A stretch of DNA of 64,000 nt from Chiloscyllium plagiosum (taxonomy: Eukaryota): positions 51,169,941 through 51,233,940 of the forward strand of contig NC_057718.1 of the NCBI RefSeq assembly GCF_004010195.1. The letters run 5' to 3'. The notes under the pieces were generated by a model. It saw nothing but the letters and a program-made list of their open reading frames with translations. It was not told the origin of the DNA and did not search any database. Position numbers and translations under genes: made by a program. Positions 3,270 through 53,990 of this stretch are shown piece by piece (position 1 is the first letter of the stretch; each line of letters begins with the position of its first letter).

Positions 3270-4490
3270 AGGATTCCCCAGGAGTCTCAACCGGGTCTAA
3301 CCCATCTCCTGCACTTTTCCCTCAACACCTCTTTTCTAACCTGCAACAATGATAGGGTTCCCCTTGTTGTTACCTACCACCCCACCAGCATCCACATCCA
3401 GAAGATCATCAGCAGCCATTTCCACCACCTCCAGTGAGATGCCACCACCAGACACATACTCCCCTCCCCTCTCTTGTCCGTCTTGCACAGGGACTGTTCC
3501 CTTTGGGACACATTGGTCCACTCTTCCTTCACTCCCAACACACCCTCACATCTTCCCCTGTAATCACCAAAGGTGTAACACCTGCCCATTTACCTCCTCA
3601 GTATCCAAAGACCCAAACATACCTTCCAGGTGAAGTAGCACTTTACCTGCATGACACACAATCTAATCTACTGCATTCGCCACTCACAATATGGTCTCCC
3701 CTACATTAGGGAAATGAATCATAGACTGGGTGACCAATTTGCAGAACAGCTATGTTCTGCCCACAAAAAAGACCCTGAGCTTCCAATTGCCTGCTACTTT
3801 AACATGCTTTAGCATTTCTGATAAAGAACTTATGCTCGAAACTTAATTCTCCTGCTCCTCGGATGCTGCCTGACCAGCTGAGCATTTCCAGCATCGCACT
3901 CTTCAACTCCGATCTCTAGCATCAACAGTGCTTACTTTCTTCCACTTTAACACACCACCCTGTTCCCTGGCCAACATCTCTGTCTCAGGCTTGCTGCAGT
4001 ATTCCAGTGAACCTCAGCTCAAGCTGGAAGAGCAACCCCTCATTTTCCACTTGGGGACCCTGCAGCCCTCCGGACTCAACATCGAGTTCAATAATTTTAG
4101 GACCTGAACTCCCTCATGTCGCAGCCCCTTACCACACACACCAGGCTTGTTATCACATAGTTTGCCATTACACACTACCTATTGTCAGCCAATAACAGTC
4201 TCCATTAACAGCTATTCACCCTTCCAGTCACATCATTATCGACTCCTTTGTCTGTCCAATTGTCCTTCTCTCTCTCTGCGTTCCATCCCTGCTTACTCCT
4301 TATCCTCTCCCCCACCCTATGTTCTGCACATAAACCGACATTTTCCTAACTATCATTAATTTCGGAGGAAGGATCACTGGATCCAAAGTGTTAATTTTGA
4401 TTTCTCTTCACAGATGCTGCTAGATCTGCTGAGCTTTTCCAGCAATCTGGTTTTTTTTTCGTTTCTGATTTACAGCATCCACAGTTCTTT
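3270..4490 (+). mobile_element. Degenerate Neptune-like PLE 3' fragment (Zn-knuckle, GIY-YIG, pseudo-LTR)
   Basis: CNHQRCNTC and a frameshifted IYCIR..YGLPYI motif resemble the 32.6-35.3 kb element. Decayed HHR at about 4357-4397 (stem GGATC-ACTG-GATCC). Confidence 0.85.
3805..3943 (+). mobile_element. 139-bp solo HHR/pseudo-LTR insertion nested in the older PLE
   Basis: TSD ACTTTAACA (3796-3804, 3944-3952). CTGATAA..GAAAC followed by the same tail as 43627-43714. Confidence 0.75.
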
Positions 4491-32601: not shown

Positions 32602-35298
32602 GATTCTGGATTAGAGGTGTTGGAAAAGCACAGCAGTTCAGGCAGCATCCGAGGAACAGTAAAATCGACATTTCAGGCAAAAGCCCTTCATTGATGCCCT
32701 GGGGTTGAAGTGTTCCGAGCCGGAAGATGAGGCGTTCTTCCTCCAGGCATCAGGTGGTGAGGGAGTAGTGGTGAAGGAGGTCCAGGATCTCCATGTCCTT
32801 GGCAGAATGGGAGGGGGAGTTGAAATGTTGGGCCACAGGGCAGTGAGGCTGAGTGGTGTGGGTGTTCCGGAGGTGTTCCCTAAAGCACTCTGCTAGGAGG
32901 CGTCCAGTCTCCCCAATGTAGAGGAGACCGTATTGGGAGCAACGGATACAATAAATGATATTGGTGGATGTGCAGGTAAAACTTTGATGGATGTGGAAGG
33001 CTCCTTTAGGGCCTTGGATGGAGGTGAGGGAGGAGGTGTGGGCGCAGGTTTTGCAATTCCTGCGGTGGCAGAGGAAGGTGCCAGGACGGGAGGGTGGGTT
33101 GTAGGGGAGCGTGGACCTAACCAGGTAGTCACTGAGGGAATGGTTTTTGTGGAAGGCAGAAAGGGGTCGGGAGGGAAATATATCCCTGGTGGTGGGGTCC
33201 GTTTGGAAGTGGCGGAAATGTCGGCAGATGATTTGGTTTATGCGAAGGTTGGTAGGGTGGAAGGTGAGCACCAAGGGCATTCTGTCCTTGTTACGGTTGG
33301 AGGGGTGGTGTCTGAGCGCGAAGGTGCGGGATGTGGACGAGATGCATTGGAGGGTATCTTTAACCACGTGGGAAGGGAAATTGTGCTCTCCAGTGAAGGA
33401 GGCCATCTGGTGTTCTGTGGTGGAACTGGTCTTCCTGGGAGCAGATATGGTGGAGGCGGAGGAATTGGGAATACGGGATGGCATTTTTGCAGGAGGTAGG
33501 GTGGGAAGAGGTGTAATCCAGGTAACTGTGGGAGTCAGTGGGTTTGTAAAAAATGTAGGTGTCAAGTCGGTCGTCATTAATGGAGATGGAGAGGTCCAGG
33601 AAGGGGACGGAGGTGTCAGAGATGGTCCAGGTAAATTTAAAGTTAGGGTGGAATGTGTTGGTGAAGGTGATGAATTGCTCAACCTCTTTGCGGGAGCATG
33701 AGGTGGCCCCAATGCAGTCATCAATGTAGCGGAGGAAGAGGTGGGGTGTGGTGCCGGTGTAATTACGGAAGATGGACTGTTCTACACAGCCAACAAAGAG
33801 ACAGGCATAGCTGGGGCCCATACGTGTGCCCATGGCGACCCCTTCCATGGAGGAAGTGGGAGGATTCGAAGGAGAAATAGTTAACGGTGAGGACCAGTTC
33901 GGCCAAACGAATGAGAGTGTCGGTGGAAGGGTACTGTTGGGGACATCGGGAGAGGAAGAAACGGAGGGCTTGGAGGCCCTGGTCATGGCGGATGGAGGTG
34001 TAGAGGGACTGGATATATCCATGGGGAAGATGAAGCATTGGGGGCCGGGGAAACGGAAGTCTTAGAGGAGGTGCAGGGCGTGGGTGGTGTCTCGAACGTA
34101 TGTGGGGAGTTCCTGGACTAGGGAGGGTAGGACAGTGTCGAGGTAGGTGGAAATGATTTCAGTGGGGCAGGAGCATGCTGAGACAATCGGTCGGCCAGGG
34201 TGGTCAGGCTTGTGGATCTTGGGAAGGAGGTAGAACCCGGCAGTGCGGACTTCCTGGACTATGAGGTTAGACGCTGTGGTTGGGAGATCTCCTGAGGTGA
34301 TGAGGTTCTGTATGGTCTGGGAGATGATGGTTTGGTGATGGGGTGGAGTCATGGTCGAGGGGGTGCTAGGAAAAGGTGTCCTCAAGTTGGCGTCTGGCTT
34401 CAGCGGTGTAGAGATCAGTGCGCCAGACTACCACTGCACCCCCTTTATCTGCTGGCTTGATTATGAGGTCAGGATTGGAGCAGAGGGATTGGAGGGCTGC
34501 GCGTTATGAGGGTGAGAGGTTGGAGTGGGGGAGGGGGTAGACAGGTTGAGGCGGTTAATGTCCCGGCGGCAGTTAGAAATGAAGAGGTCGAGGGCAGGTA
34601 ATAGGCCAGCATGGGAGTCCAAGTGGCTGCAGTGTGTTGGAGGTGGGCGAAGGGGTCCTCAGAAGGTGGGCAGGAGTCCTGATTGTGAAAGTAAGTTCGG
34701 AGGCGGAGGCGGCAGAAGAATTGTTCGACGTCACGGCGTGTATTAAATTCATTGATGCGAGGTTGGAGGGGGATGAAGGTGAGTCCTTTGCTGAGGACTG
34801 ATCGTTCGTCCTCAGTGAGTGGGAGGTCTGGAGGGATGGTGAAAACTCGGCAGGGCTGGGAGCTGGGATCTGGTGTGGGTGTGGAGTTGGGAGTGGGGGC
34901 GGAGCCGGTAACTGGAGTGGGTGTGGTGGTGGAGGGAATGGGGGTGGAGTCAAGAGCAGGGGTGGTTTCCCCCCAGGGTTCTGGGGGGCAGGGATGGTGA
35001 CACTGGGATCTGTGGGGGGTGGGGGCGTGACAGCAGAATGCAGGTGGGGGCGAAAGGGGTGGCAAACACAGTAGTGGGTGGTGCGGAGGTCACTGAGCGT
35101 GTGACATCAGCGATGATGTGAGGGGAGGAAGTGATGTCACTTGTGGTGCAGGAGGGATTAGAGGTGCTGGAAAAACACAGCAGTTCAGGCAGCATCCAAG
35201 GAGCAGTAAAATCAACATTTCGGGCAAAAGCCCTTCATCAGGAATACAGGCAAAGTGCCTGAAGGGTGGGGAGATAAGTGAGAGGAGGGTGGGGGTGG
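32602..35298 (-). mobile_element. Neptune-like Penelope element (RT + Zn-knuckle + GIY-YIG) with direct pseudo-LTRs; pseudogenised
   Basis: 12-bp TSD GTCTGCAGAGAG (32590-32601, 35299-35310). RT motifs LPKIHKP..RPIVS, GVAMGTRMGPSYA, RYIDD; CHRRNCKTC; IIYCIRC..LYIGETGR..FREH. Direct repeats at about 32608-32690 and 35155-35238. Confidence 0.95.
35209..35246 (-). ncRNA. Minimal type I hammerhead ribozyme motif in the 5' pseudo-LTR
   Basis: ATTC-CTGATGA-A-GGGC-TTTT-GCCC-GAAA-TGTT-GATT. Confidence 0.75.
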
Positions 35299-42980: not shown

Positions 42981-43100
42981 ATTAGGCAAAAATCTTTGCA
43001 AACTGACTGGGGGGGCAGATGTTCACAGGTAAAGGGACGGCTGGAAAATGGAAAGCCTTCAGAAATGAGATAACGAGAGTCCAGAGAAAGTATATTCCTG

Positions 43101-43552
43101 CTGTGGTTCTGTTCGCCGAGCTGGAAGTTTTTGTTGCAAACGTTTCGTCCCCTGTCTAGGTGACATCCTCAGTGCTTGGGAGCCTCCTGTGAAGCGCTTC
43201 AGTGGTGTTTCCTCCGGCATTTATAGTGGCCTGTCCCTGCCGCTTCCGGTTGTCAGTTTCAGCTGTCCGCTGTAGTGGCCAGTATATTGGGTCCAGGTCG
43301 ATGTGTTTGTTGATGGAGTTTGTGGATGAGTGCCATGCTTCTAGGAATTCCCTGGCTGTTCTTTGTTTGGCTTGCCCTATAATGGTAGTGTTGTCCCAGT
43401 CGAATTCATGTTGCTTGTCATCTGCGTGTGTGGCTACTAGGGATAGCTGGTCGTGTCGTTTCGTGGCTAGTTGATGTTCGTGGATGCGGATCGTTAGCTG
43501 TCTTCCTGTTTGTCCTATATAGTGTTTTGTGCAGTCCTTGCACAAACTTTGA
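43101..43552 (-). mobile_element. Poseidon-like PLE 3' fragment (GIY-YIG) nested in the CR1
   Basis: 14-bp TSD AAAGTATATTCCTG (43087-43100, 43553-43566). ORF 43156-43545 is closely similar to 1597-2037. Confidence 0.95.
43135..43176 (-). ncRNA. Minimal type I hammerhead ribozyme motif (intact)
   Basis: GCA-CTGAGGA-T-GTCACCT-AGAC-AGGGGAC-GAAACGTT-TGC, with palindromic AAACGTTT in the stem III position. Confidence 0.8.
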
Positions 43553-43626
43553 AAAGTATATTCCTGTTTGGGTGAAAGGAAAGGCTGGTAGGTGTAAGGA
43601 ATGCTCGATGACTAAAGAAATTGAGG

Positions 43627-43714
43627 TGAAAATGCGTTGCTGGAAAAGCGCAGCAGGTCAGGCAGCATCCAAGGAACAGGAGAATCGACGTTTCGGGCAT
43701 AAGCCCTTCTTCAG
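43627..43714 (-). mobile_element. 88-bp solo HHR/pseudo-LTR insertion nested in the CR1
   Basis: GAGG duplicated at 43623-43626 and 43715-43718. Homologous to 35165-35241. Confidence 0.85.
43682..43714 (-). ncRNA. Minimal type I hammerhead ribozyme motif (intact core)
   Basis: CTGAAGA-A-GGGC-TTAT-GCCC-GAAA-CGTC-GATTC. Confidence 0.8.
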
Positions 43715-46399
43715 GAGGGGTTTGGTTAAGAAAAAGAAGGAAGCATATGTCAGGCATAAACAGGATAGATCGTGTGAACCCTTAGAAGAGTATAAAGGCA
43801 GTAGGAGTATACTTCAGAGAGAAGTCAGGAGGGCAAAAAGGGGACATGAGATAGCTTTGGCAAATAGAGTTAAGGAGAATCCAAAGGGCTTTTACAAATA
43901 CGTCAAGGATAAAAGGGTAACTAGGGAGAGAATAGGACCCCTCAAAGATCACCAAGGCGGCCTTTGTGTGGAGCCACAGGAGATGGGGGAGATACTAAAC
44001 AAGTATTTTGCATCAGTCTTACTGTGAAAAAGGACATGGAAGACATAGAATGTAGGGAATTGGATGGTGACATCTTGAAAAATGTCCATATTACAGAGGA
44101 GGAAGTGCTGGACGTCTTGAAATGCATAAAAGTAGATAAATATCCAGGACCTGATCAGGTGTACCCAAGAACTCCGTGGGAAGCTAGGGAAGTGATTGCT
44201 GGGCCTCTTACTTAAATATTTGTATCATCAATAGTCACAGGTGAGGTGCCGGAAGACTGGAGGATGGCTAATGTTGTGTCACTGTTTAAGAAAGGTGGTA
44301 AGGAGAAGCCAGGGAACTATAGACCAGTGAGCCTGATGTCAGTGGTGGGCAAGTTGTTGGAGGGAATCCTAATGGATAGGATATACAAGTATTTGGAAAG
44401 GCAAGGACTGATTAGGGATTGTCAATATGTCTTTGTGCATGGGAAATCATGTCTCACAAACTTGATTGAGTTTTTTGAAAAAGCAACAAAGAGGACTGAT
44501 GAGGGCAGAGCAGTAGATGCGATCTATATGGACTTCAGTAAGGCATGGTTCCGTGGGAGACTGGTTAGCAAGGTTAGATCTCATGGAAAGAGAACTGGCT
44601 CAAAAGTAGAAGACAGAGGATGGTGGAAGAAGGTTGTTTTTCAGACTGGAGGCCTGTGACCAGTGGAGTGCGATGAGATCGGTGCTGGGTCCATTATGTT
44701 TCATCATTCATATAATTGATTTGGATGTGGACCTAGGAGGTATAGTTAATAAGTTTGCAAATGACACCAAAATTGGAGTTGTAATGGACTGTGAAGAAGG
44801 TTACCTCAGATTACAACGGGATCTTGATCAGATGGGTCAATAGGCTGAGAAGTGGCAGATGGAGTTTAATTTCATAAATACGAGGTGCTACGTTTTGGAA
44901 AAGCAAATCAAGACAGGACTTATGAATGGTAAGGTCCGAGGGAGTGTTGCTGAACAAAGAGACCTTGGAGTGAAGGTTCATAGCTCCTTGAAAGTGGAGT
45001 CCAAGGTAGATAGGTTGGTGAAGAAGGTGTTTGCTATGCTTTCCTTTATTGGTCAGAGTATTGAGTACAGGAGTTGGGAGGTCATGTTGCGGCTGTACAG
45101 GACATTGGTTAGGCCACTGTTGGAATAATTCTGGTCTCTTTTTCCTATTGGAAAAATGTTGTGAAACTTGAAAGGGTTCAGAAAAAAATTACAAGGATGT
45201 TGCCAGGGTTGGAAGATTTGAGCTATAGAGACAGGTTGAATAGGCCATGGCTGTTTTTCCTGGAGCGTCGGAGGCTGAGGGGAGACCTTATAGAGGTTTA
45301 TAAAATCATGAGGGGCATGGATAGGATAAATAGACAAAGTCTTTTCCCTGAAGTGGGGGAGTCCAGAATTTGAGGGCATAGGTTTAGGGTGAGAGGGAAA
45401 AGATATAAAAGAGACTTAAGGGGCAACATTTTCATGTAGAGGGTGGTGCATGTATGGAATGAACTGCCAGAGGACGTAGTGGAGGCTGGTACAATTGCAA
45501 CATTTAAAAAGCATCTGCTTGGGTATATGAATAGGAAGGATTTGGAGGGATATGGGCCGGATTGGGATATCTGGTCGGCATGGACAAGTTGGACCGAAGG
45601 GTCTGTTTCTGTCCTGTACATCTCTATGACTATGACTATCAGTCCTCCTAACTGAGGAAACTTTCACTGCATTTCCTCTGTAAAAAGAACATCCTTCCTC
45701 AGACAAGGATATTAAAACTGCACACAATATTCTAGTTGTGGTCTCACCAAGGCCCCATATAATTGCAGCGAGACATCCCTAATCCTGTACTCAAATACAC
45801 TCACTATGAAGGCCAATAAATCAGTTGCCTTCTTTATCACCTACTGCACCTGCATGCTTACCTTCAGTGACTGATGTATAAGGATGCCCAGGTCTCATTG
45901 CACATTCTCCTCTCTCAATGTATGGCTATTCAGATGATAATCTGCCTTCCTGGTTTTGCTACCACATTGGATAACCTCACATTCAATCACATTACACTGC
46001 ATCTGCTGTACATTTGCTATTTATTCAGCTTGTCCAAATCACACTGAAGCATCTCTACATATTCCTTATAACTCAACCTCCCACCCAGATTTGTATCATC
46101 TATGAATTTGGAGATATTACACTTAATTCCCTCGTCTAAATCATCAATATAAATTGTGAATAGCTGGGGTCCTAACCTTGTGGTACCCTACTAGTCACTG
46201 CCAGCCATTCAGAAAAATACCCGTTTATTCCTACTCTTTGGTCTACTAACCAATTTGGGATTGGGAGTGGTATATTGAGATGGGTAGCAAATTGGCTGGT
46301 CATCTCAATATTACCACTCCCAATCCCATACACTTTAGTCTTACACACTTATCTCTTATGTGAGACTTTGTCAAAAGTTTTCTGTATAAATATTTAGTG

Positions 46400-50051: not shown

Positions 50052-50266
50052 ACTGCAGATGCTGGAATCTGTACTGAAAACAAAATATGCTGGAAATCAC
50101 AGTGGGCCAGGCAGTATCTGTGGAGAGTCAGCAAGCTGATGTTTTGAGCCCAGATGACTCTTCATCAGAGCTCTGATGAACAGTCATCTGAACTCAAAAT
50201 GTCAGCTTGGTTTCTCTCCATGGATGCTCTCTGACCTGCTGTGATTTCTCCCATGTTTTGTTTTCA
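50052..50266. mobile_element. Palindromic element of two back-to-back HHR/pseudo-LTR units
   Basis: Axis at 50170/50171 (TTCATCAGAG|CTCTGATGAA), arms about 96 bp, one CTGATGA core on each strand. Confidence 0.85.
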
Positions 50267-53334: not shown

Positions 53335-53990
53335 AAGACCATATAACATAGGCTGAATAACTTACTTCAGTTCCTATCAATTCTGCCCTGCTATTCAATG
53401 AAATCATGGTTTATATGACAACGCACAATTCCAATTTCATGCTTTTTTCCCCATAATTCCTTACTGATTAGAATCTGTCTAACTCAGTCTTAAATTTACT
53501 TAATGACCAAGCCTCTAAAGCCCTCTGCAGTAAAGAATTCCACACATTCACTATCCTCAGAGAAGAAATTCCACATCATCATCCTTCAAACTCTGATGAA
53601 GAGTCATCCTGATTCCAAACGGTAGCTTGCTCTCTCTCTACGGATGCTGCCAGATTCGCTGTGGTTTATAGCATTTTTTGTTTTCAGGACAGATTGTGCA
53701 GTAATTTGCTCCTCCTCATATTCTCATAAACGAGTGACTCCTTATTCTAACATTATTACCATTGTAGACTCTCCCTCAAGGGAAAAGTAAACCTTTCACC
53801 ATCTACTGTGTCAAGTACCCTAATAAACTGATATGTTTCAATAAGGTTGCCTCTCATTCTTTGAAATGAGGACACACTGAACCTATTCAACCTCTTCTCA
53901 TAAGACAGTCCCTCCGTTCCCAGGATCAGCCCAGTGAACCTTGTCTGGACTGCCAATTCTCTCATAATAGTGCTCCTTGTTTAAAAATGG
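53335..53990 (-). mobile_element. CR1/L2 3' fragment containing a solo HHR insertion
   Basis: ORF VQTRFTGLI..GLSYEKRLNR..RMRGNLIETY. Confidence 0.75.
53583..53710 (+). mobile_element. Solo HHR/pseudo-LTR unit of the same subfamily as the 50.1-kb palindrome
   Basis: CTCTGATGAAGAGTCATCCTGATTCCAAACGGTAGCTTGC matches the palindrome arms. Confidence 0.75.

Follow-up and report, generated by a model that had tools for sequence, protein, structure and literature searches.

Penelope-like elements (PLEs) are commonly 5' truncated and carry inverted pseudo-LTRs (PMC8969392). In the pseudo-LTRs of metazoan EN+ PLEs, among them Xena, Poseidon and Neptune of fishes, a type I hammerhead core occurs together with a palindromic, loop-less helix III (PMC4209133, PMC8557442), which is described as the minimal hammerhead (HHR) architecture of PLEs (PMC4209133). 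The same two papers describe an ORF in which a reverse transcriptase (RT) is combined with a C-terminal GIY-YIG domain by a CxxxxCxxC linker, an optional tail of about 35 nt, and inverted, 5'-truncated partners; all of these traits recur in the element treated here. In Neptune, the linker between RT and endonuclease has the form CX2-5CxxC, and a zinc-finger-like linker is also present in Nematis (PMC8557442). For the anole PLE Poseidon, in vitro work indicates that both target strands are nicked and extended, that two internal RT start sites define the tail, and that RNA left unprocessed serves as the main substrate (PMC11167929). Our element appears to share these properties, as well as the lack of RNA ends at the cleavage site.

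Non-LTR retrozymes are arranged in tandem, each unit measuring about 150-450 bp and carrying a hammerhead, and are associated with circular RNA (PMC7229834; bioRxiv 10.64898/2026.07.22.740005). Those of animals derive from or are related to pseudo-LTRs and include dispersed monomers; like the unit described below, they are non-coding and contain a type I hammerhead. According to the texts consulted, the site of transcription start, the role of the hammerhead, and the regeneration of pseudo-LTRs and inverted ends are open questions in PLE biology (PMC2377424, PMC8557442, PMC11167929). Here we describe a short hammerhead-bearing unit in a stretch of 64,000 nucleotides from Chiloscyllium plagiosum (the window) and compare its ends with those of its relatives.

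Results and Discussion

A recent leader stub in a LINE-like ORF

Element positions are counted from +1, the C of CUGA (43714, minus strand); -1 is the preceding base, and the predicted cleavage follows +28. The unit lies within the ORF of a LINE, which we take to be CR1, and the locus comprises the following features.

43101-43552, minus strand: insertion of a second PLE family, with GIY-YIG end, its own hammerhead at 43172 and a 12-nt inverted tail stub
43553-43626, plus strand: host LINE ORF, left part
43623-43626, no strand assigned: GAGG target sequence, matching a variant of the element at +89 to +92; only GG is duplicated relative to the LINE copies
43627-43717, minus strand: PLE leader stub inserted here, spanning -2 to +88 of the element, with an additional base at 43717
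43715-43716, minus strand: positions -2 and -1, what is left of the initiator-like motif and of the 5' strand of helix I, also within the duplication called by the first-pass annotation
43718-45631, plus strand: host LINE ORF, right part

Since the stub interrupts the LINE-like ORF and the empty site is present 4303 times in the genome, it represents a true insertion. Alignment with eight LINE copies runs up to 43626 and resumes at 43718 with a two-base overlap, and the net gain relative to these copies is 93 bp; the joint with the best support in four DNA runs also skips 93 bases. Because the element consensus extends through -2 (43716) and the left GAGG is also found in an element variant (locus L003), the insert comprises -2 to +88 (or +92) and one extra base, which is C and not G. 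Both ends show microhomology, with a duplication of 2 bp, and GAGG is a possible priming microhomology. By its 3' end, the stub belongs to the tail-less type.

The first-pass annotation had called this unit an 88-bp, ribozyme-only insertion with a 4-bp duplication, starting exactly at CUGA. Its status as an insertion stands, but two thirds of the unit are downstream leader and helix I has just 2 bp, so it is not ribozyme-only. The exact start is one ambiguous reading of a junction at which the element match begins 2 nt before CUGA, and the proposed size and duplication give way to the 93-bp net gain and two-base overlap, as the earlier reading would need an extra G in the target. The extension of about 60 nt beyond GTC was correctly described, the minus strand reading 60 further bases to 43627. 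The young look of the stub is likewise borne out: its CpGs are intact and its identity to the best-scored 40 of 935 candidates is 98-100%. The stub is thus a real, recent copy of a Penelope-type front end.

The net gain of 93 bp leaves the LINE frame open (43542-43900, plus strand), the antisense of the stub having no stop in that frame. This is probably due to chance; another PLE breaks the LINE 70 bp upstream. That second insertion is flanked by a 14-bp duplication (43087-43100 and 43553-43566) and has a better helix I than the stub. Its 12-nt inverted tail stub is an extreme head-to-head form.

An assembly artefact is extremely improbable as the source of the stub. Mis-joins of the locus do exist, as a stretch of 265 bp identical to 43455-43720 lies beside an N gap on another contig (L001, G000:C36:23887099-23890194), and none of the contigs from the four DNA runs, which stem from other individuals, bridges the stub junction; yet the stub itself has clean LINE flanks on both sides, without a gap, and thousands of sister junctions. 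L001 was considered as a second copy of the insertion and rejected, being identical only over the 265 bp by the gap and about 92% alike beyond. It is probably a mis-join, with the 265 bp inside a different insertion of the second family.

The parent is a Neptune-type PLE

An exact 34-mer from the stub occurs 90,470 times in the genome. Copies that read through the stub boundary run upstream into a 3' UTR and then into the end of an ORF, which bears a C-X4-C-XX-C linker as well as a GIY-YIG-like motif; in L127, the leader follows such a GIY-YIG end. Relatives of the ORF-end peptide (46 hits among 168 candidates) include P0011, a protein of 902 aa with PF00078 and PF01541, and the nearest named ones are from cartilaginous fishes. 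Four ORF fragments gave no match in Pfam, and a PDB sequence search with ORF fragments also gave none. On the downstream side, the leader precedes an ORF ATG at +162/+163 in 13 of the 29 loci printed, and at +117 in one with a deletion. The same leader is therefore found both 3' of the ORF end and 5' of the ORF start, which is the pseudo-LTR layout, and the order of the element is ORF end and 3' UTR, initiator-like motif, hammerhead (+1 to +28), 3' end sites at about +90 and +125, and ATG (+163). In anole Poseidon, by contrast, the ATG lies inside the hammerhead and initiation takes place within the ORF (PMC11167929), whereas both sites are upstream of the ATG here.

Given the upstream GIY-YIG ORF end and the downstream ATG-bearing ORF, we assign the stub, on the basis of sequence, to the leader or pseudo-LTR end of a Neptune-type PLE; it is a piece of an ORF-bearing element. 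The parent reads as an EN+ PLE from fragments, none of them an intact full-length copy, and is placed in the Neptune type by its C-X4-C-XX-C linker rather than by an RT tree. In six loci (L224, L225, L227, L228, L229, L235), the PLE ORF contains a long low-complexity stretch rich in Ala, Thr and Pro past the first ~145 residues, which varies from copy to copy.

The hammerhead motif in the stub consists of the following parts, all on the minus strand.

43708-43714: core box CUGAAGA, from sequence
43695-43706: helix II of 4 bp with a 4-nt loop, predicted pair probabilities 0.83-0.94
43687-43694: GAAA-CGUC, second core box and loop-less palindromic helix III (ACGU), from sequence, with the architecture of the minimal HHR
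between 43687 and 43686: predicted cleavage point, from sequence

The core features of a minimal type I hammerhead are present in the sequence and the helix II fold: the CUGANGA and GAAA boxes, helix II, the palindromic 15.2-16.2 pairs and an NUH site. Helix I has 2 bp in the stub and three of four possible pairs in the parent, with a predicted pair probability of at most 0.002. An Rfam scan of the window returned no matches at the gathering score, and CTGAAGA alone occurs in the window at chance level (20 versus 15 +/- 3.8 expected). A type III topology was ruled out, there being no upstream partner for helix III.

Copies end just upstream of the hammerhead core

Copy ends were read from loci anchored at +46 to +79, downstream of the cleavage site, in the first 3 Mb of contig C1, the window and eight LINE loci, giving 261 distinct anchored copies. 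Outside query-biased loci, there were 125 young-type copies: 66 inverted arms, 48 solos, 10 at gaps and 1 at an edge. The histogram leaves out the first 30 best matches, which are query-biased, L118-L128, the 10 gap-adjacent copies, the edge copy and the local duplicate L093, as well as older subfamilies, whose upstream sequence differs from the reference. The sole solo starting at +29 is a local duplication, and dropping it leaves 47 solos; some long "solo" copies in the sample are actually arms of longer inversions.

The 5' ends of these 47 solos are concentrated at one place. Seventeen lie at -5 to -1, compared with 5 at +1 to +5, 3 at +6 to +26 and none at +27 to +45; upstream, 2 lie at -14 to -6, none at -42 to -15 and 20 farther away. 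Inverted arms show the same preference (28 of 66 at -5 to -1). The expectation of the first-pass annotation that 5' ends are not evenly spread is hence confirmed, the pile-up having p = 6e-16 against an even spread over -100 to +45. It falls on the initiator-like A at -4, 166 nt ahead of the ORF ATG. While the papers on metazoan EN+ PLEs describe variable 5' truncation (PMC4209133, PMC8557442), about half of the young copies here stop within 5 nt of one site, and with an excess of G. The 3' ends are bimodal, at +83 to +97 in 69 of the 125 copies and at +120 to +125 in 56, that is, at sites about 35 nt apart, resembling the two internal RT starts of the anole PLE (PMC11167929); together with the inverted arms, which make up 66 of the 125, the tail and inverted-partner features of the group are both present.

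The distribution bears on the simplest alternative, that the stub derives from a longer read-through cDNA by ordinary, random 5' truncation, its end fixed at -2 by GA microhomology with the LINE target. The LINE target does supply the -2 and -1 bases, the stub is without a cap G, and the 20 solos ending farther upstream are scattered truncations. On the other hand, the ending rate per base is about 0.087 at -5 to -1 versus about 0.008 at -100 to -43, meaning that roughly nine in ten of the copies ending here belong to the peak. At the level of the family, random truncation is rejected; for this particular stub, we regard it as distinctly improbable.

Starts at the cleavage site are rare. None of the 47 solos begins there, and genome-wide such starts are at background level: +29 starts number 862 and +30 starts 599, so that +29 exceeds the next base at most about 1.5-fold, and among 25 sampled loci each, 11 at +29 and 10 at +30 are point changes. 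Since starts at +29 are at background and about half of them are point changes, cleaved RNA was rarely the template. The earlier proposal that the inserts were copied from uncleaved RNA is therefore upheld.

Longer copies show ends in the same place. Starts at -3 to +2 are found in the ORF-bearing copies L213, L215, L220, L222, L223 and L232, and ORF sequence is joined to -6 to -1 in L150, L212, L223 and L236. Neighbouring pairs among 319 copies are 70 head-to-head, 3 tail-to-tail and 9 direct.

In the window, other solo units had also been reported to begin near the core. This applies to the unit at 3812 (start at -5), the unit at 142 (about -2) and the palindrome arms at 50075-50266 (-2 to -4), but the unit at 53583 is decayed and no clear duplication was found there. 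Two further window copies, at 35241 and 32689, are joined to upstream element sequence and are not solo. The palindrome at 50075-50266 belongs to another pseudo-LTR family; it is an old head-to-head form whose arms meet in a 4-base palindrome immediately ahead of the core. At 32618-32750 (minus strand), an older leader from +6 is joined straight to GIY-YIG-end ORF sequence, skipping the 3' UTR, a join that may reflect an internal deletion or a template jump. Subfamilies with diverged upstream sequence (for example L047, L106, L115 and L133) retain pyrimidine-A-TTC, and sometimes CAGTC, just ahead of the core; the retained motif would fit either an initiator or helix I.

An excess of G in front of position -4

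The base at -4 is the A of a motif resembling YYANWYY, the initiator consensus. An extra G opposite the first transcribed base is a signature of reverse transcription across a cap. In a genome-wide set of copies intact from -4 to +36, the base ahead of -4 is C, the element's own, in 12282 copies, G in 2747, A in 1331 and T in 515. G thus stands in front in 2747 of the 4593 non-read-through -4 starts (60%). At -3, where 5297 copies start, G precedes in 14 of the first 100; 2478 copies start at -2. The -3 and -2 patterns are shorter than the -4 pattern, and these totals are just roughly comparable. About 20 of 30 sampled loci of the C class read through, from which it follows that roughly half of the copies intact at -4 stop there.

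When the counts of 82 G, 44 A and 30 T junctions are scaled to the genome, G accounts for about 65% of the filler junctions (95% interval 56-74) and about 54% of the solos (42-65), the expected share being 28% by the genome and 40% by the partner arm. Among the G junctions, partner arm or target templates the G in 29 of the 58 that are inverted and in 9 of the 23 solos. Fillers often repeat the first bases of the element, as if the template end had been recopied. The confinement of the G excess to -4 would fit a copied cap. A splice acceptor at -4 was ruled out because AG is absent and the flanks do not share an upstream exon.

The peak might instead arise on a template that extends upstream, if the cDNA or a double-stranded intermediate were cut or resolved at C|ATT by the element's own GIY-YIG endonuclease, or if it stalled and was joined at the hammerhead's front edge. 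The endonuclease of the anole PLE favours an ATT motif where ORF and pLTR meet (PMC11167929), and ATT is where the peak falls here, these bases being at the same time the 5' strand of helix I; ends at -3 and -2 are frequent. However, neither cutting nor stalling predicts a G excess confined to -4, and helix I barely forms. The second PLE family, in spite of its better helix I, shows no pile-up at its own core (0 of 8 copies, a small sample), which argues against a general fold stop and indicates that the pattern is not universal. A stop at the ribozyme fold, as suggested by the first-pass annotation, is also doubtful because a polymerase moving 3' to 5' along the template would meet the 3' foot of the hairpin first, while the peak is found slightly beyond the core's 5' edge. 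Taken as a whole, we consider an origin by cutting or stalling unlikely.

RNA reads and the question of circles

RNA reads showed no 5' end of the element's RNA. Run X21, a poly(A) single-cell run, contains 1957 matching reads in both directions, 93% of them from passenger copies running into unrelated sequence, and has no position where many molecules begin; run X22 has no matching reads. Loose ends in X21 at -4, +86 to +89 and +124 to +127 mirror genomic junctions and are not RNA ends. For anole Poseidon, too, we found no mapping of RNA 5' ends in the available parts of the study (PMC11167929).

The stubs had been proposed as a minimal retrozyme-like class, in which a small RNA circle, made by the hammerhead and re-ligated, is copied by the PLE machinery. 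Several points speak for this: the copies span the cleavage site, circles have been proposed as PLE templates (PMC4209133), and non-LTR retrozymes of animals, which have their origin in pseudo-LTRs, are present in a cartilaginous fish (bioRxiv 10.64898/2026.07.22.740005). Yet with a circle as template no stop at -4 would arise, and permuted or head-to-tail copies would be expected; none of the 9 direct neighbours among the 319 copies abuts as head-to-tail short units, versus 70 head-to-head pairs; there is no such array within 450 bp. There is just one hammerhead in the unit, its helix III lacking a loop and its helix I having 2 bp, and the only backward RNA joint (4 reads, 2 starts) is off the cleavage site, in a poly(A) run that is unsuited to circles. 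Stub ends match the leader of the parent and vary copy by copy. Circles are not needed, since linear uncut RNA explains both the spanning of the site and the stop at -4, whereas a circle explains only the spanning. We therefore regard a circular template as highly improbable and do not retain the proposed class, the units being pieces of an ORF-bearing PLE. Unlike retrozymes, they occur singly or head-to-head, their core is minimal and their linear ends are fixed. Counts of retrozymes should leave out solo hammerhead stubs, and the unit described here belongs, as an ordinary piece, to a known class of retroelements.

A probable origin from the end of capped RNA

The origin that we consider probable is that the stubs are short cDNAs that began internally and extended to the 5' end of a linear RNA, uncleaved and capped. 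RNA polymerase II would start at the A at -4. The PLE protein would nick the target and prime cDNA at +90 or +125, and the cDNA would reach the RNA 5' end after about 90-130 nt, with the cap often copied as one extra base. Joining to the other target end by microhomology would cost 0-5 nt, so that the stub at 43627-43717 would have lost its end down to -2. If both target ends were primed, head-to-head palindromes would result; PMC3846280 proposes self-priming on an antisense template as an alternative for these. A jump from the RNA end to another template could account for tandem forms and for the four joins of ORF sequence to -6 to -1. The ribozyme would play no part in making the stub.

Some observations run counter to a capped end at -4. 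The Penelope transcription start does lie in the pseudo-LTR (PMC2377424), but in D. virilis it is ~120 nt upstream of the hammerhead, across an intron (PMC2377424, PMC4209133). The stub itself starts at -2 and has an extra C, starts at -3 (5297) are as common as those at -4 (4593), and the partner arm or target provides the template for some of the excess G. About half of the copies read through -4, so other templates exist as well.

In LTR elements, strong-stop DNA is the short first cDNA that runs from an internal primer to the capped 5' end, after which synthesis jumps to another template. The stub may be likened to this product in the way it works, not as a member of the same class: LTR strong-stop synthesis is tRNA-primed and depends on elements with a primer-binding site and integrase, whereas the stubs would be primed by nicked target DNA, without either, and the short product is itself integrated. 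We found no description of a strong-stop or a cap G in PLEs in the literature searched, which mostly lay outside subscription journals, and the term "strong-stop" is absent from PMC3846280. That PLEs in general use such an LTR-like step, with target-primed cDNA that begins within the leader, runs to the capped 5' end 4 nt ahead of the hammerhead and normally jumps to the 3' leader copy of the RNA, is a tentative proposal that we think rather doubtful at present.

Conclusions

About 90,000 exact young copies mark one candidate RNA start to the base and indicate that cleaved RNA is rarely copied. If the strong-stop step were true, hammerhead cleavage would possibly end the 3' leader copy, and -4 to +28 would be the terminal redundancy. 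The tens of thousands of solo and head-to-head stubs would then be failed jumps, and the jump itself would be the missing mechanism that regenerates pseudo-LTRs. The value of the stub is that of a mechanistic fossil, as the ends of its copies make the model of a strong-stop followed by a jump testable.
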